Assembly (NCBI GenBank): GCA_016187835.1
Contig: JACPIY010000029.1
Coordinates: 1-32,190 of the forward strand
DNA: 32,190 nucleotides
Direction: 5' to 3'
Source: Deltaproteobacteria bacterium
Lineage (GTDB): Bacteria; Desulfobacterota_D; UBA1144; Nemesobacterales; CSP1-2
The position numbers were made by a program, and so were the translations under genes. The notes beneath the pieces are model-generated. The model worked only from the letters and a program-made list of their open reading frames with translations. It was not told where the DNA came from and did no database searches. This document shows positions 12,301 to 31,929 of this stretch, piece by piece (position 1 is the first letter of the stretch; the number at the start of each line of letters is the position of its first letter).

Positions 12301-13106
12301 TTTCTACGGATTTCTCACGCGCTACGAATCGTATAGTTATCTATTCTCCTTTTATTACCCAAGACCGTGTAGCATTTTTACTGCCCCAAATGCAAGCGGC
12401 CGCTTCTCGTGGCATTACGATATTCATTCTGACAAAATCTCATTCAGAACGTTCTAAAACAGAACTCAACCTTTATAGAAAGTTGGAAAACCAGCTTTCA
12501 GAAATTGGAGCTGTTATTATCCACAAACTGCGAATGCATGAAAAGCTAGTCTTTATTGATGACAATATTACATGGTCTGGTTCTTTGAACCCATTGAGTT
12601 TCTCAAATACTCAAGAAATAATGGAACGTCGAAAAAGCTCTTCCGTCTTACAGGACTATTTTAAAATATTGCGGCTTGAGGAACTTCTATTAGTTCCTGG
12701 TAAGCCTGAATCGAAATGCCCCATCTGTGGTTCTGAAATGATAGCTGCAGAGGGTGCGGATGAACCGTATTATTGGCGGTGTGCTAATGATGACTGTTAT
12801 TCACGAAGCATTGACCAGCCCTATCCTATTGACGGAATGTTAACATGTGGTTCTTGTAATTCAACAGTAGAGTTTGGGTATTGGGGTGATTATCCTCATT
12901 GGCGTTGTTGTTCGAATACGAGACATCGGCAGAAAATCTTCAAGTCTCATTTGCGACTACCGAAGATGGCTGCCCTAGTGCCAAAATCAGAACGAAAGAA
13001 ATTATGTAGGCTGCTTTCCATTGATGATTTTGATTCATTCATTATTGGAGATACCCATCAGCGGAATGGCATTGTTCAAAGTAGTCTTTTCGGGGATGAT
13101 AATTGA
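9354..13106 (+). CDS. Large fusion protein: Upf1-like SF1 helicase (AAA_11/AAA_12 type) with ~430-aa coiled-coil insertion + single-HKD PLD-family nuclease + tandem topoisomerase-type zinc ribbons. True start probably upstream (frame is open from 9171)
   Basis: Walker A GPPGTGKT (nt ~9669). Q-like LNEDQLKAL. Motif II VIIDEASM (nt ~11296). Motif IV FIPLTEQRRM. Motif V/VI SFQGSEAYVVIF and ALTRAKTRLIVLGD. PLD HKD motif HEKLVFIDDNITWSGSLN (nt ~12535). Cys clusters CPICGSE...WRCANDDC and CGSCNS...WRCCSN. Confidence 0.85.
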   Translation: MLVPGKPPLEVTIVSTEGLRLVVSVNIDLGQYVPTARLQTNLTILMRKLIERIEKNASAANPAASRMLGNSPVSGESKSILEKNLNEDQLKALNSALGRNLTFIWGPPGTGKTHTIGTIAEYLYRDKNTVLIVSHTNTAVDQAVKHVATAFKEKLGIALLQGGILLRIGDVRDEVLKSAFPEVLVKNQVERQFKELVEKREQLASQKQGMEDELNSLNRQITIIEWISGSVGDIRASQNQVNELHEKEHALSISEQELSDLTDKQTALRKKEQLATRVLSLKKELSETKSKEGELQQKLDSLSSEISTTTLQLHRQKEIYEIAKRIEPLRKELASYTSIDKQKAAIAEIYSKISEHSSQIADLQTAFNNATKILEQSCSSGAMMRLWKRLPKPEEQQIAVNTVKTQLDSAINEKANVQKTFETYEDLLIRTEKLAAELSKYSHISDYAQETANLEKANDSLSVLNQKSAELKDRVASVLRAIATLQAEIDKGITELSADPNEVLADVSNQLKYFSDLNEVVKSIGSDCRVMRSQLTSILTHMLECLTVWGLVNSKPTGVEGMLLLIKETHAAVGANFASSDLYSLNNKAGELRVEIFRLSSEISEIEDNLSQVEKIVIAKAAIIGATLTKIYLSDDIQGRKFDTVIIDEASMAPIPALWVAALLVERNLVIVGDFMQLPPIVLSNNTLIQSWLGRDIFEASGVRDLWEKEEPPEYFIPLTEQRRMLPQIAEIANLFYKGNLKTRPDQINLNDDNFLSWYNKDWPYDNPVLLVDTGSLNAWVTSVVKNGNTSRLNFLSATVSIDIAEQLLLPGRPRRQEGAPKRILIISPYRAHAKLVSILLKENDAIQDDVISGTAHSFQGSEAYVVIFDMVADEPHWRVNLFMPDLDDQLKSLLNVALTRAKTRLIVLGDFNYCQSHGEKAFLGKSLLPFLLKKYPRVDASQIIPEGLASRAAKTQMRMLGGSIEPDSDRIVVTQADFYRVLSTDFSRATNRIVIYSPFITQDRVAFLLPQMQAAASRGITIFILTKSHSERSKTELNLYRKLENQLSEIGAVIIHKLRMHEKLVFIDDNITWSGSLNPLSFSNTQEIMERRKSSSVLQDYFKILRLEELLLVPGKPESKCPICGSEMIAAEGADEPYYWRCANDDCYSRSIDQPYPIDGMLTCGSCNSTVEFGYWGDYPHWRCCSNTRHRQKIFKSHLRLPKMAALVPKSERKKLCRLLSIDDFDSFIIGDTHQRNGIVQSSLFGDDN

Positions 13107-13467: not shown

Positions 13468-14139
13468 ATGGGGTATATCATGAGAAAAAGGACCTGGATA
13501 CCTACAAGACTACTATTTGTCATTATACTCTTCGCATTAGTCATAAGCGGAGAGGCTCTGTGGACTTTCAGTGGGGGAGATCCCAGAGGAGAGTGGGTCC
13601 TCGTAACGGAGGCAGTGGATGGCGATACTATCTCCGTAGGGCGCGGGTGGAGGTCTACCAAGGTGCGTCTTATCGGTGTTGATACTCCTGAAACAGTTCA
13701 CCCGGAAAAACCTATCGAATTTTTAGGTCCAGAGGCCTCGGAGTTTACCAAGAAGCAACTGGAAGGGAAAAAGGTGTATCTCGAATTTGAGCCTTCTAAT
13801 TATTATGATAACTACGGGCGTCTACTTGCCTATGTGGTTCTTCAGGACGGTACACTTTTCAATGTTGAACTAATCAAACAAGGGTATGCTCGTGTTGTTG
13901 CTCCTTCCCCGTTCCATCGCTATAAAGAGTTCCGTAGTTATGAACAAGAGGCACGGGTAAAGGGGTTGGGTCTTTGGGCTGCAAAGGATATTTGTAGAGA
14001 GATTATCGGTAACAGGTCGTCGAAGATATATCGTCTTCCTGGCGATGCTGGCTGTGGCCGGATTAAGGAAGAAAACCGGGTCTACTTTGATACGGAGGAG
14101 GGGGCAATAAAGGCAGGGTATAGACGAGCGAAGAGGTAA
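13468..14139 (+). CDS. Secreted/membrane-anchored thermonuclease (staphylococcal nuclease, SNase family)
   Basis: N-terminal hydrophobic signal/anchor. RLIGVDTPET matches the SNase catalytic motif. Possibly starts at ATG 13480 (MRKRTW). Confidence 0.85.
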   Translation: MGYIMRKRTWIPTRLLFVIILFALVISGEALWTFSGGDPRGEWVLVTEAVDGDTISVGRGWRSTKVRLIGVDTPETVHPEKPIEFLGPEASEFTKKQLEGKKVYLEFEPSNYYDNYGRLLAYVVLQDGTLFNVELIKQGYARVVAPSPFHRYKEFRSYEQEARVKGLGLWAAKDICREIIGNRSSKIYRLPGDAGCGRIKEENRVYFDTEEGAIKAGYRRAKR

Positions 14140-17960: not shown

Positions 17961-18075
17961 ACTAGAAGTTCCAAATTACAAGCACCAAATTACAAATAAA
18001 TCACAAAGTCTGAGGCACCAAATCTCAAACAGATACCAAATAACAGATTCCTAATTTCCAAACGTTTGGAATTTG
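17961..18075. repeat. ACCAAAT-rich repeat family C, copy 1 (intergenic)
   Basis: Tandem caagcaccaaattacaaat / ggcaccaaatctcaaac units and a perfect 16-nt palindrome ttccaaacgtttggaa. Motifs caagcaccaaat and ccaaatctcaa recur at 25055..25226. Confidence 0.6.
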
Positions 18076-19695
18076 TCATTTGGTATTTGTGTTTTCATAC
18101 GGCTGAGTAACTACGTCGTCTTCGAGTAGTACATTTAAAACCTTTTTCTCAAATTCTTCTAAATCGGTTCTTCCAAGCTTTTTATATATTGAGATTAGAG
18201 CTATATGAATTTCGGGGTTAAAAGGGTTTATGGATATCGCTTGAGTATATGCTTCTTCTGCCTTATTTAAGTTTCCCTTTTCCAAGTAGATTTTCCCAAG
18301 ATTAGTGTAGGTTTCTATATATTCAGGATGTAACTCAAACAGAGGTGTTAGTCTTTCTTTTGCTTTATCGTATTCCCCATAAGCGCTTAGAGTTGAAGCC
18401 AGACGGTTTAGAATAATGGGCGATAGGGGGTCAAAGTGAAGCGCTTTTTCATATTCATAAGTTGCGGCTTTCAGCCTCCCCCTGGTTCTGAGCATGTCGC
18501 CGAGTCTTGTATAGTTTTTAGCCTGGGCATTGTCCAGTTCAACCAGGTCTTCGCTTTGGTCTTTGGACCCTGCTCTCTTTTCCTCAAATCTCAGTTCCTT
18601 TACTTTTACTTGGGGGGTTCTTTCTTTAAGGTTCCTCGATCTCAGGTCTCTTATCCATGTGTTGTAGAAGTCGGCAAAATTCTTTTTTGTAACCTCTTTT
18701 ATAGCCACCTTATAATCGTTTTTTTCTTTGATATTGTTAAGCAAATCCACAAGCGATTTATTCCCCCATTTTTTTACAAGAAAGTCCACAATCGTTCCGA
18801 CTTGCGCAAATGCAAGCTGGGCTTCATAGGCACTGCTTAGCTTTCCGAGGGATGGATGCATTTTCTCTATTGGAACGAGATTGTTTGCCTTAAGCGCCTT
18901 TGCAAGGAGGGTTTCGTAAAAAGGATTTATGACATTTCTCTTCTTTTCTTTCCATCTTTTTTCTTCAAATTTGGCAATACCTTCATGCAGCCACACAGGA
19001 ACGGTATTGCCGCTTTTAAGAAATATAAGATAATGGGTGTATTCATGTGCCAGTGTATCAAGCCACGTATAACCTTGAGGCAGAAGTCTTGGCGATAAGA
19101 TCATTATGCGGTTGAACTTGCAGATTCCTACTACCCCTGTGGTTTTTATATCATTTTCTGAAAGGGTAGAAGCGAGTGTAAAACTTTCAAGATTAGGATA
19201 TATCTCAACAACTACCGGCTCGCTGGGGTAGCTCTCTAAATCGAGCCCGATTTCATAGTAAACCCGTTCAAGCACGTCTTCTGCATAACTCACGAGAATT
19301 GAATCCTTTGAATGGGAGTATCTTATTATGAAATGCTCAGTTTTTACTTCTTCGAATCTTTCCCCATTCTTGGCGACCTTAATTATATAATCTAAAAAAC
19401 CACCGATTTCTTTATCCGCGGGAATTAGTGCATGCGACTTTTCTCCCAGCTCTCTCGCTTTAGTATAGTTGCTTTTATAAAACTCAACCTGAGACTTGAA
19501 AAAATAAGCAAGAGCTTTATCATCAGGACTTTCTGCGAGTTTTAAGATTCTATCCGCGGCTTGTGATGCTTCAGATACCTGCCCACTGAAAAGGTATTGT
19601 TTTCCGCTTTGTAGCTCTATTTCAAAGTCCGGTTCTTTAGCCAAAGCGTTTATACAGAGGGAGAAAAACGAAATTAGAAAGAGTAAACTTTTCAC
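18076..19695 (-). CDS. Secreted peptidase-MA-like (HExxH) domain protein with C-terminal TPR repeats
   Basis: Signal peptide MKSLLFLISFFSLCINALA. LAHEYTHYL...WLHEGIAKFEE gluzincin-like motif. C-terminal TPRs (AEEAYTQAISINPFNPEIH). In an operon with moxR. Confidence 0.7.
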   Translation of the reverse strand: MKSLLFLISFFSLCINALAKEPDFEIELQSGKQYLFSGQVSEASQAADRILKLAESPDDKALAYFFKSQVEFYKSNYTKARELGEKSHALIPADKEIGGFLDYIIKVAKNGERFEEVKTEHFIIRYSHSKDSILVSYAEDVLERVYYEIGLDLESYPSEPVVVEIYPNLESFTLASTLSENDIKTTGVVGICKFNRIMILSPRLLPQGYTWLDTLAHEYTHYLIFLKSGNTVPVWLHEGIAKFEEKRWKEKKRNVINPFYETLLAKALKANNLVPIEKMHPSLGKLSSAYEAQLAFAQVGTIVDFLVKKWGNKSLVDLLNNIKEKNDYKVAIKEVTKKNFADFYNTWIRDLRSRNLKERTPQVKVKELRFEEKRAGSKDQSEDLVELDNAQAKNYTRLGDMLRTRGRLKAATYEYEKALHFDPLSPIILNRLASTLSAYGEYDKAKERLTPLFELHPEYIETYTNLGKIYLEKGNLNKAEEAYTQAISINPFNPEIHIALISIYKKLGRTDLEEFEKKVLNVLLEDDVVTQPYENTNTK

Positions 19696-22600
19696 TTTAT
19701 TATCCTATCATAATATCTCTTATTAAGTTCGCTGTAGCCCTCGGGTGATCCCTCTTTTAAGGCTTTTAAAATACTCTCTTTAAATTCCTTTCCGATCTGT
19801 GATTCTTCAGGTGCCGGGATTTCTACGTAGCCTGTATCAACTCCCTGGGTGCCCTGTTGAAGTTGGTTGCCTAAAACTAGTGGAACAGGTAGTCCCGTTC
19901 CTTTTGCGCTAAGCTGGTATTTCTCGAGGAGTCCTTCGGTTTCTTCACGTGCCTTCTTGAGTGTTTTTATTGCCTCTTCCTGATTTGAGATCGCTTTAGA
20001 TATTTCGGTTTTTTTTAGATTGTCGTATGCGCCACGCATGAATCCCTTTGATTCACCCACTTTTTCTCCGATTTGGGGTATGAGTGAAGAATCGTCTTGA
20101 AATTCACCAATATCGTTCCCAAGTTGCGAGGTTTCTTTTTCAAGTTCATCCTGTCTTTTGGCAATCTGATATGATTGTCCATCTCTGGTTCCCCCTTGCA
20201 AAGCATTCTCAAGGTCTTGGCGAATCTCTCTGGCAAGTCCTTCGGATTTTCCTATCTCTCTATCCCCTTTTGCAATTTCCCAAAACAGTTTACTTAGGTT
20301 TTTAAGTCCTATGGTGTCTTCTTCAACCTCTTTTGCACGTTTCAGGGCTTCCTCAAACTCTAATGCTTGAAGCCAATGCTCCAGCTCATCGGTTTTGCGA
20401 AGTGCTCTGTCAATAAGAAAAGAGCCTTCTATGATTTCACTTTCAGGAATATCTGGAGAAACCTTTGCCTTGGTTTCCGAAAGCATGTTTTTTAATTGCT
20501 CGATTTTCTTTCTTTCTCTTTCTAGAAAATCAGACAGGTTTTCTTTTTTGGGCGGAGATTTGAGGAATGATTCTTTAAGATTTTCGGTTCTTCCTTTAAG
20601 GTTTGTCTGCTCCTTTTCAATGCTTCCAATTCTTGAGATTATCTCGTTTAATCTATTAATTTCCTTTGAAAGCGAAGCAGAGCTAAATGACTGAAAACCG
20701 CTTTCGAGTGAAGCGATCATACTTTGAAGACCCGTTTTAAGACTTGAAAGCAAATCTACGGCTTCGTCAATTTTTCCCCGCTCTGCAAGCTTCATAATTT
20801 CATCGAGCTTTCCCTGTAAGTCAATGGACTCAAATGCATCAGGATTTAAAAATCCGTCGTAGATGTCTCCGCTTATAGAACTTAGCTTCTCCGTTAACTC
20901 AGACATCAGGCTTCTTAGCTCTTCTATCTTTTTGGCTATTTCTTTTCTCGTTGTTTCATCTCCGTTTTGCTTTAGCTTCTCGAGTAGCTCTGAAAGCTCA
21001 TTGTATTTACTGAGCGTATCTTTTCCGTAAAGCAGAGATTCTCTCAGCTTTTCTCCTTTAAGCATTGAGTCCAAGAATAATATGTCATCCTCAAATTCAT
21101 TTATTTCTTTTGTTATAAGACTATCTAGTCTTGGTAAATCAGTTATCAAAAATGAAGGAATTAAATCATGACGTTCATCCAGCAAATCCTGAATCCTTAT
21201 CTTCATACCGGAAAGTTCCAGGAAATAGGTATAGTCTGAAAAATCGTCGTTTCTCATTTTCCCAACTATTTTGTCTAGGGAGCTTAGAGATCTTTCAATC
21301 TTACTCGTTAAATCTTCCTGTATGCTTTTTGTCATGCTGATATTTATCTTGCTGTAATCAGATTGATTCTCGCTTTGCCCAGGTGTCTGATCGCCATCCG
21401 AATTTTGATCTGAATTTAAAGGCCAATTTCCGAATCTTGCATTTTCGACTTCGTCCCCAAGTATATCCAAGAATTCATCTAAAAGCTTTTCTGCTATTAT
21501 TAATATGTCTTCATGTTTTTTTCTCGGGTTCTTGAACTTAACTTTAATTACGTTTGAAACCCCGATCTTAGGACCGGATACTGTATCGTTGTCATACGCC
21601 TTTATTCTTACCTCTAAAGTTTCACCCGGATCAGAGTCAACTGAACCAAGCTCCCATAGAAACTTACCTTCAAGAAATTTTAACTCTTCCTTTGTTTGCT
21701 TTATCAACCTGCTTGACTCGCCTTTCTTTGTATTCCAAGCAAGCATTAGTTTCGTAATTCCGAAATCGTCGTCCGCTCTGTAGTTAACCTCGAGTTTTTC
21801 TCCGCCATCAATTTCTATTACATCTCCACCGGGATGTTCAATATTTACTCTTGGATTTTTGTCTTCCTCCATAGTGATTTTAAAAACCCTTGACCTATAT
21901 TTTCCGCTCTTATCTTCAACAAAAAAACTCCCGCTCGAGAGTATTCTGAACTCCGCCTTAATTTTCCCTTTTTCAGAGTTTACAGGAATGACATGCCCTT
22001 TCTCAATGACGAGATTCCCTCTATCTAGAAGCTTCAGGGGAGTTGCTTCAAATGCAACATTGGTTCCCTTTATAGCTTTTATATCTCCTGTGCTTCCCTT
22101 TATTTCCTGAGGAGGAATCTCAGTGTAATCGGGGTAGTTGTAATTTACTTTAATATCCGCAAGTTCAAGGAGATAGGGCTCTGTTGGTGGGAAGATTTTA
22201 GTGCTGAATAAAAAACTATGGAACTCTCTTGGTGAAAATATCAAAGAGGTTAGGGATAAAACAAAAACGGCGGCGATCGCCTTCGAGTAACTCCTTATTT
22301 TCTCTTTAGGAACGGCCGGAGATAAATCAAGCGATTCAATCCTACTAGCAACTTTGTCTATATGCGCACTGACAAGGGGCTTCGAAACGCCTAGTTTTTT
22401 CACGCTTTGAGTCTCCGCCATAAGAAGGGCGGCGTTTAATGTGTCTTCTCCCAGACCCGGAGAAACTCTCTCAAGCTCCTTTGCCAGTTCCGTTTTTCTC
22501 TCCTTTTTTAATATGGGAGGAAGCAGGAACTTTACAAACCCGAAAAACAAAGCCGCTATAGCTAAGGTTTTTAGGATAGAGAAATAAAGATTATTTGAGT

Positions 22601-22778
22601 AAATATGGGCAAAAAGAGAGATTAATCCCAGAGATGCACATAGAACCAATAAAAATTCTATCGTGCCATTTGTTAAACAAACCCTTTTTCGTTTCTTTTC
22701 TAGGCTTCTTAGAACTTTATCTAGAATCGCTTCTGAACCGGTATTCATCAAATAAAATAGTACCGCAGAGTTAGGCAA
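19692..22778 (-). CDS. Large membrane-anchored coiled-coil protein (1028 aa), first gene of the MoxR operon; BatD/DUF4175-like is possible
   Basis: Three N-terminal TM helices, then a long charged coiled-coil region with K/E-rich heptads. 4-nt overlap with the downstream gene. Confidence 0.6.
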   Translation of the reverse strand: MPNSAVLFYLMNTGSEAILDKVLRSLEKKRKRVCLTNGTIEFLLVLCASLGLISLFAHIYSNNLYFSILKTLAIAALFFGFVKFLLPPILKKERKTELAKELERVSPGLGEDTLNAALLMAETQSVKKLGVSKPLVSAHIDKVASRIESLDLSPAVPKEKIRSYSKAIAAVFVLSLTSLIFSPREFHSFLFSTKIFPPTEPYLLELADIKVNYNYPDYTEIPPQEIKGSTGDIKAIKGTNVAFEATPLKLLDRGNLVIEKGHVIPVNSEKGKIKAEFRILSSGSFFVEDKSGKYRSRVFKITMEEDKNPRVNIEHPGGDVIEIDGGEKLEVNYRADDDFGITKLMLAWNTKKGESSRLIKQTKEELKFLEGKFLWELGSVDSDPGETLEVRIKAYDNDTVSGPKIGVSNVIKVKFKNPRKKHEDILIIAEKLLDEFLDILGDEVENARFGNWPLNSDQNSDGDQTPGQSENQSDYSKINISMTKSIQEDLTSKIERSLSSLDKIVGKMRNDDFSDYTYFLELSGMKIRIQDLLDERHDLIPSFLITDLPRLDSLITKEINEFEDDILFLDSMLKGEKLRESLLYGKDTLSKYNELSELLEKLKQNGDETTRKEIAKKIEELRSLMSELTEKLSSISGDIYDGFLNPDAFESIDLQGKLDEIMKLAERGKIDEAVDLLSSLKTGLQSMIASLESGFQSFSSASLSKEINRLNEIISRIGSIEKEQTNLKGRTENLKESFLKSPPKKENLSDFLERERKKIEQLKNMLSETKAKVSPDIPESEIIEGSFLIDRALRKTDELEHWLQALEFEEALKRAKEVEEDTIGLKNLSKLFWEIAKGDREIGKSEGLAREIRQDLENALQGGTRDGQSYQIAKRQDELEKETSQLGNDIGEFQDDSSLIPQIGEKVGESKGFMRGAYDNLKKTEISKAISNQEEAIKTLKKAREETEGLLEKYQLSAKGTGLPVPLVLGNQLQQGTQGVDTGYVEIPAPEESQIGKEFKESILKALKEGSPEGYSELNKRYYDRIIK

Positions 22779-22870
22779 AAAGGAAACAAATTCGTGACAT
22801 TTATTAACCTTATGCTATCATTATTGGTTAAAAAGAAGACTCTAGCTTTTCAAAAAAATGGGAAAAATCA

Positions 22871-23296
22871 ATGGCATATAAAATCCTTCTTACAAAAAGA
22901 GTTGATTTTGCCGCTTCTCATCGGTATTGGAACCAAGAATGGAGTGAAGCAGAAAACAAAGCAGTCTTTGGCAAATGCACAAGTCCTTACGGCCATGGGC
23001 ACAACTATATACTTGAAGTCACCCTTGAAGGGGAGGTTGACCCGGATACGGGTATGATAATAAACCTATACGATTTGAAACCAATATTAAGCGATGTCTT
23101 GAAGGATTTCGATCACAAGTACCTAAACGAAGACAATCCCGAATTTAAAGATTTAATTCCCACTACTGAAAATATCGCGAGGGTTTTGTGGGATTCCCTC
23201 GAGAAAAAACTTGGAGAGGATACAAACTGCAGGCTCTACAGAATAAGGCTTTATGAGACCCCGGATTTATATGTGGATTATTGGAGGGAGCGATGA
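22871..23296 (+). CDS. 6-pyruvoyl-tetrahydropterin synthase family protein (paralog 1)
   Basis: FGKCTSPYGHGHNY (C-x5-HGH active site) and a PTPS fold-length protein. Confidence 0.85.
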   Translation: MAYKILLTKRVDFAASHRYWNQEWSEAENKAVFGKCTSPYGHGHNYILEVTLEGEVDPDTGMIINLYDLKPILSDVLKDFDHKYLNEDNPEFKDLIPTTENIARVLWDSLEKKLGEDTNCRLYRIRLYETPDLYVDYWRER

Positions 23297-23715
23297 TAAA
23301 TGAGATATGCACCTTAACCAGAATTTATCATTTCTCTGCCGCTCACAGGCTGCATTCAGAGAAATATTCTGAGGAGGAAAATCAGCGAATTTTTGGTAAA
23401 TGTAATAATGCTAAAGGGCATGGACACGATTACTATATTGAGGTTAAGGTAACAGGAGATATTAACCCCGAAACGGGAATGGTGATAAACCTAAGTGAAC
23501 TGGATCAAATCATGAAAGATGTTATAGACGAGCTTGACCATACAAGACTTGATATTGAAATCCCATTTTTTAGAGAGTTTCAGCCTTCTGGCGAAAACAT
23601 AGTGAAATATATATGGCTAAAGCTTCAGCCCAAGATGAAGGTAGCAAGACTTTATCATCTAAAACTGTGGGAGACGCCGGATAACTATTTCGAGTATTTT
23701 GAGGAGGGAGAATAG
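23293..23715 (+). CDS. 6-pyruvoyl-tetrahydropterin synthase, eukaryote-like (paralog 2)
   Basis: [39 protein letters not shown] closely resembles animal PTPS (GKCNNPNGHGHNY...PATGMVMNLADL). Start ATG 23293 overlaps the upstream stop (ATGA) with GGAGGGAG SD; the track ORF starts at 23281. Confidence 0.85.
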
Positions 23716-23720
23716 GTAAC

Positions 23721-24272
23721 ATGAGCATCGAAAGTGCTGTAAGAGAAATTCTTTTTGAGATTGGAGAGAATCCGGATCGGCAGGGGCTCAAGGATACTCC
23801 CAACAGAATCTCAAGGATGTATAAGGAACTAACATCGGGCTATGGTGTATCGCCTAGGGAATTGGTTAATGGTGCGATTTTTGATGAAAAATACGATGAA
23901 ATGGTGATTGTTAGGGACATAGAGTTTTATAGTCTCTGTGAGCATCATCTGCTTCCTTTTTTCGGTAAATGTCATGTGGCATATATTCCAAACGGAAAGA
24001 TAATCGGGCTTAGCAAAATCCCAAGAATTGTTGAGGTGTTCTCCCGCAGGCTACAGGTTCAGGAGAGGATGACAGTTCAGGTCGCCGATTTTCTTGGCGA
24101 TATTCTAAATCCAGAAGGAGTAGCGGTTGTTGCCGAGGCGTATCACCTATGTATGGCAATGAGGGGGGTTAAAAAGGCAGAAGCTAACATGCTAACCAGT
24201 TCAATGCGGGGAGTTTTTAAAGACGACGAAAGAACAAGGGCGGAGTTTCTAAGACTCATAGGAAAACATTGA
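23721..24272 (+). CDS. folE: GTP cyclohydrolase I
   Basis: [18 protein letters not shown] and [16 protein letters not shown] conserved FolE motifs. Confidence 0.9.
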
Positions 24273-24349
24273 CAAAAAATGTAGGGGCGATCCCCCCGTG
24301 TTCGTCCTGCTTTGTATTCCCCCTGAGATCAGCTTTTAGGAAAGCACTG

Positions 24350-25054
24350 ATGAAAGGTGAAGTAGTCGTTATAACCGGAGCCGGAAAAGGAATGGGAAAA
24401 GAGATCGCTCTTGAGTTTGCTAAAGAAGGGGCTTTTATCGCAATCTGCGCCAGAACACCTGAAGGTATTAAACAAACTGAAAGGGAAGTAAAAGAACAAG
24501 GAGGAGAGACGTTAGCTGTAATCTGCGATGTCGGAGATGAAAGGGAGGTTGAGAGATTTATCCAAAACGCATCCGAAATAAGCGGAAAAATAAACGTCCT
24601 CGTTAATAACGCTGGGGTTGTCTTTGTGGGGCCTGTATCTCATTTTGATACTTCCAAATGGGAACAGACACTTAGAGTAAATCTTACCGGCGCTTTTCTC
24701 CTTACCAAGCACGCACTTAAATTTATGGATGAAGGAAGCCATATATTTAATATAGCCTCAAACGCCGCTAAGATTGGGTTTCCTAATTGGTCCGCGTATT
24801 GCGCATCAAAATTCGGGCTTCTCGGATTTACAAATTCGCTCAGAGAAGAGCTAAGGGGAAGAGGAATAAAGGTTACTGCTATAATCCCCGGTCCCACCGA
24901 TACGCCACTATGGGATGAAATTCCTGGAAATTGGGATAAAAAAAAGATGATAAAAGCCAGAGATATTGCTAGGATGGTAGTTAATGTATACAAACAACCT
25001 AAAGGAACCCTTACGGAAGAAGTTGTTATGATGCCGATAGGAGGAGCGTTATGA
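24350..25054 (+). CDS. Short-chain dehydrogenase (sepiapterin/pteridine reductase-like by context)
   Basis: VVITGAGKGMGKEIA Rossmann motif, YCASK catalytic YxxxK. Start taken at ATG 24350 (MKGEVVV); the track ORF extends to 24269. Confidence 0.75.
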   Translation: MKGEVVVITGAGKGMGKEIALEFAKEGAFIAICARTPEGIKQTEREVKEQGGETLAVICDVGDEREVERFIQNASEISGKINVLVNNAGVVFVGPVSHFDTSKWEQTLRVNLTGAFLLTKHALKFMDEGSHIFNIASNAAKIGFPNWSAYCASKFGLLGFTNSLREELRGRGIKVTAIIPGPTDTPLWDEIPGNWDKKKMIKARDIARMVVNVYKQPKGTLTEEVVMMPIGGAL

Positions 25055-25226
25055 AAAACAAACCCCAAATACCAAATCACAAATCTCAAATGAAAGGAAT
25101 TTGCCTTATTGTTGTTATTTGAAATTTGGTAATTGTGGTTTGCCATTATTGTTTGGGATTTGGTGCTTGAGATTTGGAGTTTGTAGTTCCATTTGTGGCT
25201 AGATATTAACAAAAAGGAAAAACAAA
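25055..25226. repeat. ACCAAAT-rich repeat family C, copy 2, arranged as a long imperfect inverted repeat
   Basis: Forward half aaccccaaataccaaatcacaaatctcaaatg; reverse-complement half atttggtgcttgagatttggagtttg (contains the RC of caagcaccaaat). Confidence 0.55.
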
Positions 25227-25871
25227 ATGAGCCAAGCAAACGGAAAGAAACAAATCGTAAGCCCAACGGTTACCCACTCAAGAAGAATTCCTCCGGGGCA
25301 GGTTACAACTCAGAAATTCCCGGTTTATGACATTGGCCCAAGAGCGATCTTTAACAAGGGAAAATGGCGCTTTGTGATCAGTGAAAAAGTTAGATAAGAA
25401 AGAATGCTTACCTGGGACGATTTTATGAATCTTCCACGAATAGAGGTAGTTGCGGATTTTCACTGTGTCACCAGGTGGTCAAAGCAAAATATGCTCTGGG
25501 AAGGGGTGAGGACAAAAACTATATATGATTTGGTTGAGCCCGATTCCTATGCAAAATACTTGATGATTCACTGTATGGAAGGATATACAACAAACGTTCC
25601 AATTGAGGATTTTTTAAAAGAAGACTGTCTTTTTGCTTGCAATCTTAACGGCAAACCGCTTGAACCTGAGCACGGGTTTCCTTTACGCCATGTTATACCA
25701 CAGCTTTACGCCTGGAAAAGTGCCAAGTATGTTTATGGAGTGGAGTTCATGCTCGAAGATGAACCAGGCTATTGGGAACTTAGAGGCTATCATATTCATG
25801 GCGATCCCTGGAAGGAAGAAAGATTTTGGGATGATGAAATGAAGGTCTGGGAGATAAGAAAAAAGAAATGA
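25227..25871 (+). pseudogene. Sulfite-oxidase-family molybdopterin-binding domain protein (YedY/MsrP-like small form) interrupted by in-frame TAA at 25395..25397
   Basis: ATG 25227 encodes ...FPVYDIGPRAIFNKGKWRFVISEKVR, then TAA, then in the same frame ERMLTWDDFMNLPRIEVVADFHCVTRWS (hallmark HCVTxWS motif). The two halves together form one canonical domain. Confidence 0.65.
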
Positions 25872-26062
25872 TGATGCAAATAGTCGTAGTTGGACTTAGC
25901 TATAAAAATACTCTGGTTGAAATAAGAGAGAAGTTTTCTTTTATTCAGCCAACTCTTGAAATTGGGTTTGCTGAGTTACACAAGAAAGGGAACATTGAAG
26001 TGTGCTTGCTTTCTACCTGCAACCGCAACAATCTATTTGTTTATAAAGGAATACAAACGTGA
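25868..26062 (+). pseudogene. hemA: Truncated glutamyl-tRNA reductase (hemA) N-terminal fragment
   Basis: MMMQIVVVGLSYKNTLVEIREKFSF...CLLSTCNRNNLF matches the HemA N-terminus (including the catalytic-Cys STCNR motif). It stops after 64 aa. The downstream ~700 nt has no ORFs. Confidence 0.6.
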
Positions 26063-26798
26063 ATGAGAAGGCAGAGCCAGACCTAAGGTTAGTCTCTTAA
26101 CTCCACCCAAAACGATATACCTAACACACATAGCACCAAACTAGCGAAGAAGGCTACCTATAATACCCTGTATCTATTTCAACGGTAAATATGCCGGGGT
26201 AGTCTTGGACGTACCTTCAAACAGACTACTTGCTGTTATTGTAATCTCCTAATGTGTATTACCAAAAGTTTGATCTTTTATCTCTCTTATCTTTCTTAGC
26301 ACAGGCATTATGTATTTTTTGAACGTCTCCTGATTCTCAAGTCGTAGGCAATCACCCTAAAATTTTGAGTTATGTCAGGGTTTTCTAATATGTATCTCCA
26401 TTGGTGATTATGGCAACCCGCGGTGTGCTGGCAAACTAGGGGAATGCCTTCATAGTTTTCTAAGAAGAAGACCTTATATTCTATACCTCCTACATCAACA
26501 TAACGTGACGGGCAGTGTTTCCCGTACTAATACCCAAGATGCGTCTTCTGATGCTAATTCATTAAGAGTTGCCATCTTTAAATTAATTTAGACCTGTTCT
26601 GAAAGGCACTAGAGAGAGAAGATGAAGTTCTCCAGTGCCTTTCAGCAAAAGGGTATCTAAAGTCCTCGCAGTGTATCTCAACTATCCGAAATACACCCTC
26701 AGATGGAGGAAGCTCAGGTATGGATGCTTCCAATGACTTACGTACTGATTCAGCATCTTTACCATCCCACTCACAGAAGACTTTGTACAGAATCCAGT

Positions 26799-27212
26799 TT
26801 AAATTTCATATTCTCCTTCCCAATCTATCCTAACCTCTGTAGGAGAAATCATATGTCCTTTTACTGTACCTTTACCTTTTATACCTTTGAATTTGCCATT
26901 TCCACCATCAAGTATCCATGTTCCCTCTACCTTGACCTGTCCACCTGAGTTAAATGTTTTACCCTCAATCCTACCCCAATCTCTATCTCCATCTTTATCT
27001 ATGTTGGTGTAGTATGCGTGGTATGTACTTTTATCTCCAATAATATCCGACATGTTCCAATAAGTGATAACAGCACCCTTCCATTTACCGTCTGAACAAT
27101 CCTGTATCCCTGATACCTCCGCCAGATTTAGCTCATGGTTAGCCATATGTGGCAAAGATACGTTAGTTTGCCAATTCACTTTTCCAGTGAATCCTCCGGA
27201 AAACTTAGTCAT
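26799..27212 (-). CDS. Hypothetical small protein (137 aa)
   Basis: ATG 27212 (MTKFSGGFTGKVNWQ...) has AAGGAGGG SD 8 nt upstream. No recognisable motif; Gly/Lys-rich C-terminal half. Confidence 0.5.
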   Translation of the reverse strand: MTKFSGGFTGKVNWQTNVSLPHMANHELNLAEVSGIQDCSDGKWKGAVITYWNMSDIIGDKSTYHAYYTNIDKDGDRDWGRIEGKTFNSGGQVKVEGTWILDGGNGKFKGIKGKGTVKGHMISPTEVRIDWEGEYEI

Positions 27213-27707
27213 TTTTAGTTCCCTCCTTTTTGATATGTTTGTACTTATCGCAAGCGTTGTGCCAAGATTGAAAAAAATTGAAGGATTTAGAGATGAGCTA
27301 AGATAAAATGTACCAAATACAGCCAATTAAACAGTTTTACAACAGGGATTTTGTATCCTTGGCGATGTCTGGTTTGAGTACCAATAGTGTAAACTATTGT
27401 TTACATATTTTTATCCTTAGAGTTGACTCTCGCTATAACTACCTAAAAACATTGGACTTCTGTTGTGTAAACAAAAGTTTCGGACTAAAAGACAAACCAT
27501 CAACTAAAGTTGACACTTTTCAATAACTAGAAATCTCTGATTGTTAATATCTCAATTGGTAACTATTCAGCTACTGATTAAAGGTTCGAAGGAATTTATA
27601 GATAATATATCTCGTGCTTGTTCTGCATCTTGCTTTAAGGAAATACATCTTTTAGCTGCCACGGACGGCAGCTATTTTCAATATTTATTTAGGTTTAATA
27701 ATGGCGA

Positions 27708-28844
27708 TTATCCCAAATCTCTTAGTACCTTCCTAGCCTTTTCGGGCTCGTGTAGTGTGCCCAGCTTTTCGAAGATGTGGAGAGCCTGGGTAGTATATTT
27801 CTTTGCCTTATCTTTTTCCCCTTTTTCTTTGTATAACCTTCCTAAGCTAATATAACTCTTAGCAAGCTCGTTTTTTGCTCCTATTTCTTTAAGGATTCTA
27901 ATGCTATCTTCAATATAATTTTTAGCCTTATTAAAATCATTTCCACCGTATATTTCCCCTAAGACTCTATAAGCCATTCCCTCCCAGTGTCTAAAGCCGC
28001 TCTCTTTACTGATCTCTAAAGCTCTTTTTATCGTTTCCAGAGCTTTATCCCTTTCACCAATGGATAAATAAGCCTCTCCTAAATAGATGCTGGTTACAAC
28101 TTCTTGAAGTTTCAGTCCAAACTGTTTGCCCTGTTGGATAGCTTTCTCCATACACTCTATTCCCTTCTTTAACTGACCGTCCTTATAATAAGCCGCGCCA
28201 AGAAATCCTGTAGCAAATGTAGCAAATATCGGTGGGGGAGACATTTCGAGACACCTTTCACAGTACTTAATCGCTATGTCCCATTCTCCTTTTTCTAAAT
28301 GGGGAAGAGCGGCAAACCAGCATGCCAATGCCATGAGGTTGTTGTCTGATATTTCTTCACTTTTTTTCAGAAGCTTTTGTATATAGTTTATGCTTTTATC
28401 CCAGTTACCCGTAAACCAATAATATGCTCCTATGGCTTCGAAAGCCCTACCAAGCCAATAATGCTCTCCCAGTCTCTCTAGAATTTTTACACCTTTTTGG
28501 ACGATGGGAATCACCTTCTTAAATTCACCCTTGTACAAATAGTTATATCCTTGCCTTACGGATGCTAATCCAATAATTCTTTCATTTTTTGTTAACTCAG
28601 CTAGTTCAATCGACTTCGTACAGTACCGAATTGCATATTCAAGGTCTCCCCTCACTGAATAATAAAATCCCATTTTAAAGTAGTATTCTGCCAGCCTGTC
28701 TTTATCCCCAAGCTCTTCTACTATTGGTAGATTCTTTTCTAAGGTTCTTATATGTTCTTTAAATCGATTCATAAGACGCATAACTCTTGCCTGCTTTATG
28801 AATATATCTACCCTCTTTTCTTTATTTGCCCTGGTATTAGGCAT
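27708..28844 (-). CDS. TPR-repeat fragment (C-terminal part of the disrupted cyclase/STAND/TPR gene)
   Basis: Consecutive TPR units. Its reading frame is open upstream through VGYYEEALKRLDKMPNT, overlapping the end of the 28880..30688 ORF in another frame (-1 frameshift near 28882). Confidence 0.7.
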   Translation of the reverse strand: MPNTRANKEKRVDIFIKQARVMRLMNRFKEHIRTLEKNLPIVEELGDKDRLAEYYFKMGFYYSVRGDLEYAIRYCTKSIELAELTKNERIIGLASVRQGYNYLYKGEFKKVIPIVQKGVKILERLGEHYWLGRAFEAIGAYYWFTGNWDKSINYIQKLLKKSEEISDNNLMALACWFAALPHLEKGEWDIAIKYCERCLEMSPPPIFATFATGFLGAAYYKDGQLKKGIECMEKAIQQGKQFGLKLQEVVTSIYLGEAYLSIGERDKALETIKRALEISKESGFRHWEGMAYRVLGEIYGGNDFNKAKNYIEDSIRILKEIGAKNELAKSYISLGRLYKEKGEKDKAKKYTTQALHIFEKLGTLHEPEKARKVLRDLG

Positions 28845-28879
28845 CTTATCCAGTCTCTTAAGAGCTTCTTCATAGTATC

Positions 28880-30688
28880 CTACGCATCCTCGGTAGAATA
28901 AATCTTTGCAGACTTATCCCCTGCTAAGGTCAAATAATCTACTGCCTTTTCATCCCTGGTGCTTCTCCTATAGTGATATGCTAATAGCTCATAATTCTCT
29001 TCCAGTTTATCCCCATATAAGTCCTCTAATATCTCTCCTATCTTTCCGTGTAATTCTTTTCTTCTTTTAATAAGGAGGCTATTATAAGCTACTTCCTGTG
29101 TAAGGCTGTGTTTGAATCGGTATTCTAAGTCTGGAAAGAGGCTTTTCTCATATATTAGCTCTAAACCTTTTAGCTGAGTAAGATAATCCTGAAGCTCTTC
29201 TTCTATCTCAATTATCTCTTTTAGCAATTTATAGCTAAATTCCCTACCAATAACAGAGGCATATTGAAGTGTCCTTTTAAGATTCTCTTCCAACCTGTCA
29301 ATCCTCGCCATTATAATGTCCTGTATAGTATCAGGTACATCCACCTCTGCTATACTCTTGCTAATACTGTAGCCATCTTCTCTTCTAACAATTATCTCTG
29401 ACTCAATGAAAGACTTAATAATCTCTTCTACATAAAAAGGAATTCCATCGGCTTTGTTTGTAACTAATTTAATTAGCTCTCCAGTTACTCTTTCACTATC
29501 TAAGATTGATTTTATCATCTCCTCTACTTCCTTATCTGACAGCCGACTTGGAGCAATTTGAATGTGATAGGATTTTTCACTCCATTTAGCCCTGTAACCG
29601 GGGCGACTTGTAAGAATTAGCATTATCTTACTGCTGGGTATATTATCTATAAGGAAGGTCAAAAACTCCTCAGATGCACCATCTATCCAGTGAAGATTCT
29701 CAACCGCTACAACAAGTGGTCTCAAGTTGCTATCGGCTAAAATTATATTCTTTAAGGTCTCAAGTGTCCTTTTCCTTTTATCTCTTAGGTCTAAGCTCTT
29801 AAGAAGAGCATCTGTCTCAATTGAAAGTATGTCGTAGAGGAAAGGAATACTCCCCTCTAAGTTTGGGTCTATATCTCTTATCCCTTTCTCTATATTCTTT
29901 CTTATCGTTCTTTCAGTATCTAGATTATCTATTCGAAACCTCTTTTTTATAATATCTGTAACAGGTAAATAAGAGATCGATTTTCCATATGAAATACATC
30001 TACCTTCTAAGTAAAGTATTTTTTCATCTTCTATGAGTTTCCTAAACTCGTAAAGAAGCCGAGATTTACCTATTCCTGCATCACCTATTATGGTTACAAC
30101 CTGTCCCGCCCCTTCCTTCACCTGCTCCCAGCATTCCAGCAAAAGCTCTACTTCCTTCTCTCTTCCCACAAGCGGAGTCAGCCCTTTAGTGATAGAAACA
30201 TCAAACCGGCTCCGAACACCACTCTCATGGAGCACACGATACACATCCAACGGAGTTGAAAATCCCTTTAACGTGTGCAGGCCGAGGTAATGGTACTCGA
30301 ATAATCCCTCAACCAGACGATATGTGGCAGAACTGATCACCACCGTATAAGGCTCTGCTACACTCAGCAGCCGAGCAGCAATGTTAGGTGTCCCACCCAC
30401 GATCTCTATAGGTTCCCGCGTATCTTTTACTTTCATTTCTCCTATTACCATAAGACCTGTATGTATTCCTACGCGCACCTGTAGTGGTAATTGTACTTGT
30501 GTGTTCTCTAGGGGCAGTTGACCAAACGCATCTACAATCTCCAACCCTGCGCATACTGCCCTTTTTGCATCATCTTCATGTGCCGACGGATAACCAAAGT
30601 AGACCAACAGCCCATCATCAAAGTATCTTGCTATGCGTCCCTCAAAGCGGCTGACCAACTTTGAGGAGACATCGAGATGGGTACGCAT
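28880..30688 (-). CDS. Class III adenylate/guanylate cyclase domain + STAND (AAA_16-type) NTPase fragment of a disrupted gene
   Basis: Cyclase motifs (RFEGRIARYFDDGLLVYFGYP, IGIHTGLMVIGE). Walker A VVTIIGDAGIGKSRL. The listed Met start is internal. The same frame upstream reads [17 protein letters not shown], and the first 15 cyclase residues ([14 protein letters not shown]) are in the sigma-54 activator frame. Confidence 0.7.
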   Translation of the reverse strand: MRTHLDVSSKLVSRFEGRIARYFDDGLLVYFGYPSAHEDDAKRAVCAGLEIVDAFGQLPLENTQVQLPLQVRVGIHTGLMVIGEMKVKDTREPIEIVGGTPNIAARLLSVAEPYTVVISSATYRLVEGLFEYHYLGLHTLKGFSTPLDVYRVLHESGVRSRFDVSITKGLTPLVGREKEVELLLECWEQVKEGAGQVVTIIGDAGIGKSRLLYEFRKLIEDEKILYLEGRCISYGKSISYLPVTDIIKKRFRIDNLDTERTIRKNIEKGIRDIDPNLEGSIPFLYDILSIETDALLKSLDLRDKRKRTLETLKNIILADSNLRPLVVAVENLHWIDGASEEFLTFLIDNIPSSKIMLILTSRPGYRAKWSEKSYHIQIAPSRLSDKEVEEMIKSILDSERVTGELIKLVTNKADGIPFYVEEIIKSFIESEIIVRREDGYSISKSIAEVDVPDTIQDIIMARIDRLEENLKRTLQYASVIGREFSYKLLKEIIEIEEELQDYLTQLKGLELIYEKSLFPDLEYRFKHSLTQEVAYNSLLIKRRKELHGKIGEILEDLYGDKLEENYELLAYHYRRSTRDEKAVDYLTLAGDKSAKIYSTEDA

Positions 30689-31929
30689 TACCTCCTGCAG
30701 GTCTTAAGGATCAATCTGTTCCGACATAGACGTAAAACCCCTACTAAATCACAAAACATAACCGTTAGATGGCGGCGCTCGGGCTGTCGTGAACCCTGAG
30801 CCGTGAGCCTAGTCGAACGGTCGAAGGGCCGAACTGTCTTTTTAGGTCTGATGTGCCTGCCCTTGTCTTTTTGATTGCCCGGCTCTTTATCTATGTCGGT
30901 AGATCTGGAGGTTAGAGCCTCATTATATTTCTTTAATTTTTTTATCAGCCCTTGCCTTGTAAGCCCCAGAATCTTGGAAGTCTTTTGCTTATTCCCCCTG
31001 TTTTTCTCCAGGACTTCTTTTATCAAACGAATCTCATATTCCTCTACCACCTCTTTAAGAGATTGGTTTTCTTCCTCAGTATGAGCGTATTGCAATATGT
31101 TCATACCCAATACAGGATTTTTTCGGGCCACACTTCTCACGTTTTCTGAGAGATCGCTTTCATCAATAACATCATTATCGGCCAAAATTGCCGCACGCTT
31201 TACCTCATTCTCTAACTCTCTTACATTTCCAGGCCAACTGTAGTTAACAAGGCAATCCATTGCCTCAGAAGAAAAATGCATAGAGCCCCTTCCTAATTTG
31301 TTTGCAAAGCTACTTAAGAAATACTGGGCGAGAAGGGGGATGTCCTCCTTCATTTCACGAAGCGGAGGCATATGAACAAGGACTACATTTAGCCGGTAAT
31401 ACAGGTCTTCACGGAAGCTCCCCTTCTTTATCTCATTCTTTAAGTCTTTATTTGTAGCCGCAAGAACCCTTACATCTACATTAATCGCACTTCTCCCTCC
31501 AACCCTCTCCATTTTTCTCTCCTGAAGCACACGAAGGAGTTTTGTCTGAGCAGGAAGGCTCATGTCTCCTATTTCATCCAGAAACAGCGTCCCACCGTTT
31601 GCCATCTCAATCTTTCCTACTCTCCTTTCTACCCCTGTAGCTACCCCCTTTTCAATGCCAAAAAGCTCACTCTCAAGTAGGCTCTCCGGCAGTGCCCCAC
31701 AGTTAATGTCTATGAAAGGTTTCCCAAAGCGTGAGCTATTGTAGTGGATTGTACGCGCCACAAGTTCCTTTCCCATCCCACTTTCTCCAGTAATAAGGAC
31801 GCTCAGAGGACTGTCGGAAATCTTTTCTATTAACCTTACTACCTCCTGTATTCTCGGACTTGTTCCTATAATGTTGTTTACAAAGAACCTGCCCTTGGCT
31901 TTTTCTCTACCTTCACTCTTAGGGTTCAT
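30688..31929 (-). CDS. Sigma-54-dependent transcriptional activator (AAA+ sigma-54 interaction domain + Fis-type HTH, no receiver domain), with an unusual 60-aa C-terminal tail running in frame into the cyclase start
   Basis: Walker [24 protein letters not shown] (GAFTGA-like loop), Walker [10 protein letters not shown]-finger region, C-terminal [22 protein letters not shown]. The tail ...[18 protein letters not shown] is a cyclase N-terminus. Confidence 0.8.

Follow-up and report, generated by a model that had tools for sequence, protein, structure and literature searches.

The window analysed here is a complete contig of 32,190 nucleotides (JACPIY010000029.1) from a metagenome-assembled genome of a Deltaproteobacteria bacterium (NCBI assembly GCA_016187835.1). 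At 27708-31929 on the minus strand, to which all lesion and domain coordinates below refer unless marked otherwise, it carries a broken gene. With a probability of about 0.78, a single gene of ~1400 codons was inactivated recently and has left this remnant; it comes from a family in which a sigma-54 activator is natively fused to a cyclase/ATPase/TPR sensor, its rear half has been swapped, a neighbouring gene has decayed and a regulatory module in cis is intact. The window copy is a recent recombinant pseudogene of a rare architecture for which a literature search found no description. In public annotation, two ordinary intact proteins stand at this place, MBI2486351.1 ('sigma-54-dependent Fis family transcriptional regulator') and MBI2486350.1 ('AAA family ATPase'); both are fragments of one broken recombinant gene.

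The gene is read as three open reading frames (ORFs). ORF 1 (30688-31929, 413 aa) has Pfam matches to Sigma54_activat, AAA_lid_14 and HTH_8. Its sigma-54-interaction AAA+ domain (31375-31872; PF00158, E 2e-67, profile positions 1-167 of 168) contains the Walker A motif GESGMGKE (aa 48-55), the Walker B motif TLFLDEIG and an L1 loop which reads GVATGV (31630-31647) and not GAFTGA. The domain is followed by the AAA+ lid (31120-31359; PF25601) and a Fis-type helix-turn-helix (HTH) of the HTH_8 family (30925-31047; PF02954, E 5e-12, aa 295-335). ORF 1 then runs on for 62 codons beyond the HTH, with neither a stop nor an in-frame ATG, GTG or TTG. This extension crosses a variable, GC-rich interdomain linker (30781-30924), which is in frame in every intact relative, and ends with the 14-residue stretch that starts the cyclase (aa 384-397) and 16 out-of-frame residues. 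The class III nucleotidyl cyclase domain (30263-30780; PF00211) is divided between ORF 1 and ORF 2.

ORF 2 (28880-30688, 602 aa) has a partial match to Guanylate_cyc (profile positions 61-172 of 183 only) and a complete match to AAA_16. The latter is the STAND NTPase (29615-30175; PF13191, profile positions 1-167 of 167), whose P-loop GDAGIGKS lies at 30062-30085. ORF 3 (27708-28844, 378 aa) is the C-terminal fragment and encodes the TPR sensor array (TPR_12, E 6e-33). In the 602-aa ORF the cyclase is without its first metal-binding Asp, and just 2 nt separate GGAGG and ATG; no ribosome-binding site precedes the 378-aa ORF.

Three lesions break the gene. The first (30738-30741) is a GGGG run where relatives have GG; the excess of two nucleotides has a net -1 effect on the frame. 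The window reads GTA GGG GTT TTA at this point, against GTA GGT TTT ACG in two related loci (L001 and L006) and GTA GGA TTT ACG in a third (L003). The second lesion (30704-30706) is a TAA where L001, L003 and L006 have GAA (Glu), in the context DP-E-DL. The third is the deletion of one A between 28883 and 28882, outside any homopolymer; the window reads GAT GCG TAG GAT AC, while locus L004 and both paralogues in L005 read GAT GCG/GCT ATA GG. Lesions 1 and 2 interrupt the cyclase domain. Lesion 3 parts the NTPase from the TPR array, which are continuous in relatives.

Repair of the three sites gives a single frame of 1406 codons (27708-31929), in which segments of 50 aa are 70-100% identical to homologues throughout, far beyond chance. 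A sequence-only reading of this stretch had taken the three ORFs to be pieces of one gene, and the repaired frame bears this out; alignment with orthologous DNA confirms that it had also placed the lesion sites, the cyclase start, the Glu codon and the split between STAND and TPR parts correctly. Its -1 shift near 30738 has the right net effect on the frame, but the mechanism is a two-base insertion and not the loss of one base. The gene is also longer than the '~1000-aa' given there, as intact relatives have ~1400 codons. Judging by the lesions, we infer that the full-length protein cannot be made here and that at most the 413-aa product would survive; this would have a complete AAA+ domain and HTH and no sensor.

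A full-length protein could still be expected if the gene were subject to programmed recoding, with frameshifting at GGGGTTTT and read-through of the stop codon. Lesion 1 does lie in a G4T4 run, which superficially resembles a slippery site. However, the 0-frame GTA GGG GTT TTA forms no X XXY YYZ heptamer, and three separate events would be needed, one at a TAA and one at a single-base deletion which is not slippery. Relatives encode the protein in one plain frame, and TAA is the normal stop of the same gene (27708-27710). Recoding is thus barely credible.

Comparison with homologues shows that the fusion of the sigma-54 activator to the cyclase/ATPase/TPR sensor is native and not a product of damage. 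A search of 5.8 billion proteins with the repaired cyclase-STAND-TPR part recovered intact proteins of 1431-1448 aa with the same order of sigma-54 AAA+, HTH, linker, cyclase, STAND and TPR. These include P0044 (1436 aa; L001/L002, nine members), P0042 (1431 aa; L003) and the clusters P0035 and P0043 (1448 aa; P0043 with ten members). One further copy (L013), an open frame of 1444 codons with all motifs, was found in a scan of ~185,000 species-representative genomes. Altogether, intact members are present on at least five independent contigs. The samples are different, with two JGI metagenomes as the sources of L001 and L002 and an ENA assembly as that of L003. These three loci share the order queA (on the minus strand), fusion gene, a 128-aa gene, an alpha/beta-hydrolase gene and a 64-aa ORF. 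The HTH, linker and cyclase are in frame in all six aligned sequences, and the intact relatives are 64-75% identical to the window across this junction; the linker differs among them in length and sequence, and the domains on either side are conserved.

This bears on the model put forward in the sequence-only reading, in which a separate sigma-54 regulator and a cyclase/STAND/TPR gene were merged by the loss of a stop and a start, with 'loss of the boundary with the upstream regulator'. It is true that neither a stop nor a start codon lies between the HTH and the cyclase, and that the C-terminal half is most closely related to stand-alone genes, which have zinc-ribbon N-termini of their own. 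However, the continuous HTH-linker-cyclase frame in at least five intact genes from other samples means that no boundary has been lost, and the cyclase joined to the HTH in the window is that of the fusion family and not that of the zinc-ribbon family. Alignment to intact homologues has thus turned up genuine sigma-54-AAA/cyclase fusions, a finding which that reading had itself named as counting against it. The merger is highly improbable and is counted as refuted.

Sister proteins carry other domains in the same N-terminal slot. These are a double zinc ribbon (L014, L015, L025 and L047), a SAM-like domain (L039 and L086) or a TIR domain (P0046). In P0145 (P0145/L010) the order is AAA+, HTH, zinc ribbon, cyclase and AAA_16, which makes it a possible intermediate between the zinc-ribbon and fusion families. 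At its end (7687-7833), ~2 kb downstream of the first, L003 has the beginning of a second fusion-type paralogue.

The linker of the window gene holds a copy of a dispersed repeat, CCCTTCGAC-NNG-CTCAGG (..RPFD..AQ..), at ~30795-30828; the repeat is also present in L003 (2242) and L006 (1583). There are 22 copies in 0.97 Mb of loci fetched from several phyla, against ~2 expected by chance. They are often intergenic and are at times arranged as inverted pairs. This suggests that the linker was once intergenic DNA.

The rear half of the window gene has a different origin from the front half. When the repaired protein is compared with its relatives in 50-aa segments, the pattern changes sharply near residue 600. 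Over residues 1-600, identity is 70-100% with the fusion family and ~30% with the zinc-ribbon family; over residues 601-1406, it is 76-100% with the zinc-ribbon family (P0001-P0004) and 12-50% with the fusion family. The fusion-family part spans codons 1 to ~607 and the zinc-ribbon-family part extends from the STAND P-loop onward. Nucleotide comparison (blastn) gives the same division: 30056-32038 matches L003 at 82%, and 27715-30121 matches L012/L011 at 86-87%. The GC content of the 5' half of the window gene is 45.9%, against 46% in fusion-family 5' halves. That of the 3' half is 37.3%; zinc-ribbon-family 3' halves have 37-39% and fusion-family 3' halves 50-51%.

The donor type of the 3' half is found in paralogues with the order zinc ribbon (DZR), cyclase, AAA_16 and TPR (P0001-P0019), from metagenome-assembled genomes of Desulfobacterota, Thermodesulfobacteriota and Dadabacteria. 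From the P-loop to the stop codon these are 76-100% identical to the window per 50-aa segment and 84-87% identical in DNA. They differ from the window gene in their double zinc ribbon N-terminus and in their own cyclase, which is only ~30% identical to that of the window.

The recombination junction (30092-30107) reads GGGACAGGT/TGTAACC, or ..EGAGQVV/TIIGDAGIGKS in the peptide, with fusion-family sequence 5' and zinc-ribbon-family sequence 3' of the slash. It is in frame and at a homologous position, inside the conserved ..GQVV motif right before the STAND P-loop, where relatives share only ~9-12 nt of microhomology. The replaced tract comprises the 3' ~2.4 kb, from ~30100 to ~27685, and so reaches ~25 nt beyond the stop codon; the next ~170 nt resemble neither family. 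Beyond these, the flank is that of the fusion locus again. The intergenic region aligns with L003, L001 and L007, and 25871-26502 corresponds to the part of L002 and L003 with the hydrolase gene and the 64-aa ORF; 24478-25865 matches the short-chain dehydrogenase and molybdopterin-oxidoreductase genes of L007, which lie downstream of the fusion gene there. Since the downstream flank returns to fusion-locus synteny, the junction is not a chimeric contig end. Taken together, alignments and base composition show that two paralogous families have recombined in this gene, through a domain swap at the P-loop. Such an in-frame swap, reproduced in independent assemblies, represents a clean natural case in which microhomology recombination has shuffled domains between paralogous STAND genes.

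The organism could in principle have an intact gene, in which case frameshifts, stop and/or junction would be sequencing or assembly artefacts due to errors or to paralogues joined into a chimera. The contig is part of a metagenome-assembled genome, the many similar paralogues could confuse an assembler, lesion 1 lies in a homopolymer, and lesions 1 and 2 are without independent reproduction. To set against this, Logan assemblies of four other sequencing runs were located through the identical 137-aa protein encoded next to the fusion gene. The first (L093; SRR12113422, 12.5 kb) is 100% identical, without gaps, to 17973-30481 of the window, and the second (L094; SRR12113428) is 100% identical to 25149-29463. 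The third (L095) differs from the window by one single nucleotide polymorphism (SNP), at 26289, and the fourth (L096) is 100% identical to 26265-27406. The junction is reproduced in L093, lesion 3 in L093 and L094, and the deletions in the neighbouring hydrolase gene (see below) in L093-L096.

Since a different assembler and separate runs reproduce them, the junction, lesion 3, the decayed hydrolase and the promoter module are real; junction, lesion 3 and hydrolase deletions recur base for base in at least two other runs. The ~9-12 nt shared at the junction are too short to cause a mis-join in a k-mer graph, and on either side the window is syntenic with fusion-gene loci. Each lesion is of a different kind, and one is outside a homopolymer. 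The deletions in the hydrolase gene, of ~11 nt and 590 bp, are not of the sort that read errors produce. Indel or sequencing errors along the whole contig were considered and ruled out by the other genes, which are intact: GTP cyclohydrolase I (profile positions 1-178 of 179), two 6-pyruvoyl-tetrahydropterin synthases, Fur, ferritin and an SNase-domain protein are end-to-end in their profiles, and ORFs of 1250 aa and 1028 aa are uninterrupted. A metagenome scan for the lesion-2 flank with G or T was empty and yielded no intact allele. An artefact is very unlikely to account for the broken gene.

The inactivation appears to be recent. Pairing the repaired window gene with its relatives gives a ratio of nonsynonymous to synonymous substitution rates (dN/dS) of 0.15-0.20 for both halves, and pairwise values among intact relatives are 0.14-0.20. 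Private substitutions at otherwise invariant sites number 14 and 13 in the two halves of the window gene; intact relatives have 8-17 and 2-26. A few of the private changes in the window affect motifs, such as T52M in the AAA+ Walker A and G437D next to the second metal-binding Asp; A78G is private as well. A long history as a pseudogene was tested through dN/dS and private substitutions and ruled out, as neither indicates relaxed constraint. Both halves have been under purifying selection for nearly all of their divergence, which dates the inactivation as recent; the swap itself is possibly recent too.

Breakage recurs elsewhere in the family. The identical DNA of three records (L007, L008 and L009, 8001-12310) has a 1-nt deletion just after the STAND P-loop together with further frameshifts, and L010 (8001-12467) has a single in-frame TAG at 10071. 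In L006 (467-3255) the frame shifts fall in homopolymers of an old contig and may be read errors. Tandem arrays of paralogues are present in L004 and L005. Broken members and tandem arrays together look like birth-and-death evolution.

Downstream of the gene lies a predicted sigma-54 module. An 18-bp perfect palindrome, TGTAAAC-N4-GTTTACA (27388-27405), is a candidate enhancer, or upstream activating sequence (UAS), for the HTH. It is present as a single copy in the window, where 0.15 are expected at up to two mismatches, and equivalents occupy the same intergenic position in L001-L003 and L007. A sigma-54 promoter core, TGGCACAACGCTTGC, with -24 GG and -12 GC elements (27250-27264, minus strand; also read TGGCACAAYGCTTGC), follows ~125 nt beyond the palindrome. 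It is the sole exact match to TGGCAC-N5-TTGC in 32 kb (0.01 expected by chance), and an equivalent site is found in L001-L003 and in L007-L009. Behind this promoter is an intact gene of 137 aa, HYW01_05210 (26799-27212, minus strand), with the ribosome-binding site AAAGGAGG (AAGGAGG). The order of fusion gene, palindrome, sigma-54 promoter, ribosome-binding site and ATG of a small gene is the same in the window, L001-L003 and L007. In sequence terms, palindrome and promoter have the classical enhancer-plus-promoter layout of sigma-54 regulons, and the 137-aa gene is the presumptive regulatory target.

The 137-aa protein is modelled as an eight-stranded beta-barrel (pLDDT 96) of the DUF3224/allene-oxide-cyclase/dirigent class, with a TM-score of ~0.6; it has no match in Pfam, NCBIfam or PADLOC. 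Two origins were tested for the 175/137-aa ORF, as a diverged copy of the 128-aa gene of intact loci and as a companion of zinc-ribbon paralogues, and neither applies.

The alpha/beta-hydrolase gene, which comes after the fusion gene in intact loci, survives in the window as a remnant (26270-26502, minus strand). It has a deletion of ~11 nt near its start and an out-of-frame internal deletion of 590 bp at a TGAG microhomology (between 26339 and 26338). The SNP at 26289 noted above for one Logan assembly lies in this remnant and is a population variant. Recombination, the decayed hydrolase and the downstream promoter and palindrome are all matters on which the sequence-only reading was silent.

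The intact module raises the possibility of a functional gene fission. Here, the frameshift where linker and cyclase meet would have freed a sensorless, PspF-like activator of 413 aa which acts constitutively on the downstream promoter, and only the cyclase-STAND-TPR part would be a pseudogene. The 413-aa ORF has a complete AAA+ domain, lid and HTH with full-length Pfam matches, all three lesions are 3' of the HTH, NCBI labels the ORF a regulator, and palindrome, promoter, ribosome-binding site and 137-aa gene are intact and identical in the four run-level assemblies. The placement of the lesions is not significant, as random placement puts all three 3' of the HTH in ~1 of 3 cases. The private T52M in Walker A and the private A78G also argue against a working activator, and the comparable split in L006 is on an old contig prone to homopolymer errors. 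Fission is therefore an unlikely explanation, though less so than artefact, merger or recoding, and the reading of the gene as a recently inactivated recombinant is preferred.

For the intact family, a mechanism may be proposed from domain content. The HTH would bind the downstream palindrome. Ligand sensing by the TPR array would flip the nucleotide switch of the STAND domain and so drive oligomerisation; a ligand-gated oligomerisation switch of this type is established for STAND proteins such as MalT. Oligomerisation would gather the AAA+ modules into a ring which remodels the sigma-54 holoenzyme at the adjacent promoter. The outcome would be sigma-54 activation in the usual sense, with ATP-dependent formation of the open complex.

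The cyclase domain could act as a dimerisation hub and/or provide a second output. Its closest solved structure is CyaB (3r5g). Both metal-binding Asp residues, the D of FCDLVG and the D of (G/D)DG, are invariant in the family alignment, and the Asn is kept. At the Asn-x3-Arg site the window has NIAAR and P0135 has NIASR, while P0042 has NIAAG and P0035, P0043 and P0044 have NVATQ. The transition-state Arg is thus lost in four of the six aligned sequences and in three of five intact members when L013 is counted. Since most aligned members have lost it, this Arg is not conserved in the fusion clade, and the cyclase may serve mainly as a dimerisation element.

The L1 loop reads GVATGV throughout the clade: the window gene, every fusion relative and the non-fused GAF-type relatives of Acidobacteria and Nitrospinae all have it. 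In Desulfovibrio vulgaris, the GVATGV-loop enhancer-binding protein (EBP) DVUA0100 is predicted to be sigma-54-active and has a predicted regulon of sigma-54 promoters (PMC4641369). As GVATGV is shared by DVUA0100 and the whole clade, it is a clade-wide variant and not a sign of decay.

Several points weigh against the account given so far. Firstly, lesions 1 and 2 lie 220-260 nt past the end of L093 and are seen in the deposited contig only; the Logan contigs, which come from one run series (SRR121134xx), are independent of the assembler and not of platform or site. Secondly, the hybrid is known from a single copy. Nothing above 73% identity to it, save the window's own ORF, is present among the 5.8 billion proteins, and a scan of a metagenome collection with a degenerate back-translation of the hybrid junction peptide found no second hybrid; with one known copy, no functional history is demonstrable for the hybrid. 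Thirdly, the small genes behind the promoter are unrelated between lineages (137 aa in the window, 128 aa in L001-L003, 91 aa in L007). The target gene therefore varies by lineage and the regulon is not conserved. Fourthly, the Phe of the canonical GAFTGA loop is replaced. Finally, the step by which STAND drives ring assembly is one which we purely infer.

Known systems share parts of this architecture. PspF-type EBPs likewise begin with the AAA+ domain within ~20 residues of the N-terminus, have no N-terminal sensor, and continue with lid and Fis-type HTH; the closest solved AAA+ cores are those of ZraR (1ojl), FleQ and NtrC1. The adjacent TGGCAC-N5-TTGC promoter with an upstream palindrome is a further shared feature. 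In contrast to PspF-type proteins, the fusion family has ~1050 residues (cyclase, STAND and TPR) after the HTH and a GVATGV in place of a GAFTGA loop; regulation would be in cis and C-terminal, and not N-terminal or in trans as with PspA. DVUA0100 and the GAF-AAA+-HTH clade share the GVATGV loop, and the nearest non-fused relatives (P0124 and others), which are 74-76% identical over AAA+ and HTH, are GAF-type EBPs with this loop. Unlike the fusion family, GAF-type EBPs have a classical N-terminal GAF sensor and end with the HTH.

The C-terminal chassis resembles TIGR03903, the TOMM system kinase/cyclase fusion. P0044 matches positions 269-1266 of the 1267 in this profile with 694 bits (693.9, which is below the cut-off of 705.75). 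It differs in having AAA+ and HTH instead of an N-terminal Ser/Thr kinase, and no TOMM biosynthesis genes are found near the intact fusion loci. A class III cyclase and/or STAND domain, a TPR-like sensor and a DNA-binding domain are also joined in one chain in Rv0386, Rv1358 and Rv2488c of Mycobacterium tuberculosis (cyclase-ATPase-TPR-LuxR). STAND transcription factors of the MalT type similarly combine a STAND NTPase, a TPR-like sensor and a DNA-binding domain in one polypeptide. Rv0386-type proteins and MalT have a C-terminal LuxR/GerE HTH and work with sigma-70; the fusion family has an N-terminal AAA+ domain and Fis HTH and is of the sigma-54 class. Defence-system models (PADLOC; Avs and Pycsar) gave generic domain hits only, namely RtcR-type AAA+/HTH, the PycC cyclase fold and, for P0001, Avs1b (E 4e-4).

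By predicted domain order, none of the closest known systems joins a sigma-54 AAA+/HTH to a C-terminal cyclase-STAND-TPR part, and a full-text literature search for this combination found no description. Automatic annotations of the fused architecture exist, e.g. 'NtrC family response regulator/class 3 adenylate cyclase'. It is possible, although this is put forward tentatively, that the intact relatives form an undescribed class of sigma-54 activators, in which an NLR-like cyclase-STAND-TPR chassis has an exchangeable 'output slot' at its N-terminus, filled here by AAA+ and HTH and in sister proteins by a kinase, TIR, SAM or zinc-ribbon domain. The ring would then be assembled by ligand-triggered STAND oligomerisation and not by phosphorylation or an N-terminal sensor, and the window copy would record two steps in the birth-and-death evolution of the family, a P-loop swap and a sensor-shedding frameshift which possibly left a constitutive activator ahead of its conserved promoter.

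A pseudogene is ordinary in itself. This one points to a rare wiring, in which the regulatory module of a sigma-54 activator is C-terminal to its DNA-binding domain. With the conserved palindrome and promoter next door, binding site, promoter and reporter are defined and the system is directly testable, in particular as to whether the AAA+ ring of an EBP can assemble under the control of a STAND switch.

Other features of the contig were also recorded. Scans of the window for tRNA genes and Rfam families gave no matches, and it contains no rpoN gene. A 356-aa ORF (394-1464, minus strand) begins with ~200 N-terminal residues of an MFS_3 transporter (profile positions 2-201 of 524, six transmembrane helices) and continues in frame as a glyoxalase/ring-cleaving-dioxygenase-type protein, of which it has the C-terminal half. 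It is the second truncated and fused gene on the contig, and the GC content there is 0.47 compared with ~0.40. The 64-aa ORF (25868-26062, plus strand) encodes only the N-terminal part of glutamyl-tRNA reductase (GlutR_N, HemA) and abuts the molybdopterin-oxidoreductase stop. Its conservation in L002 and L003 marks it as either a relic of some age or a small domain protein; a full-length hemA lies upstream of the fusion gene in L007.

In the 1250-aa ORF (9354-13106, plus strand), a superfamily-1 helicase (AAA_11/AAA_12) is joined to a PLD-like nuclease domain and, at the C-terminus, to a zinc ribbon; the SNase-domain protein (13468-14139) comes next. This nuclease/helicase-like pair is possibly related to defence. 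The genes of a compact pterin-type cluster (22871-25054, plus strand) encode two 6-pyruvoyl-tetrahydropterin synthases in tandem, GTP cyclohydrolase I and a short-chain dehydrogenase; none of them is broken, and the cluster is an ordinary one whose synteny extends to L093 and in part to L007.

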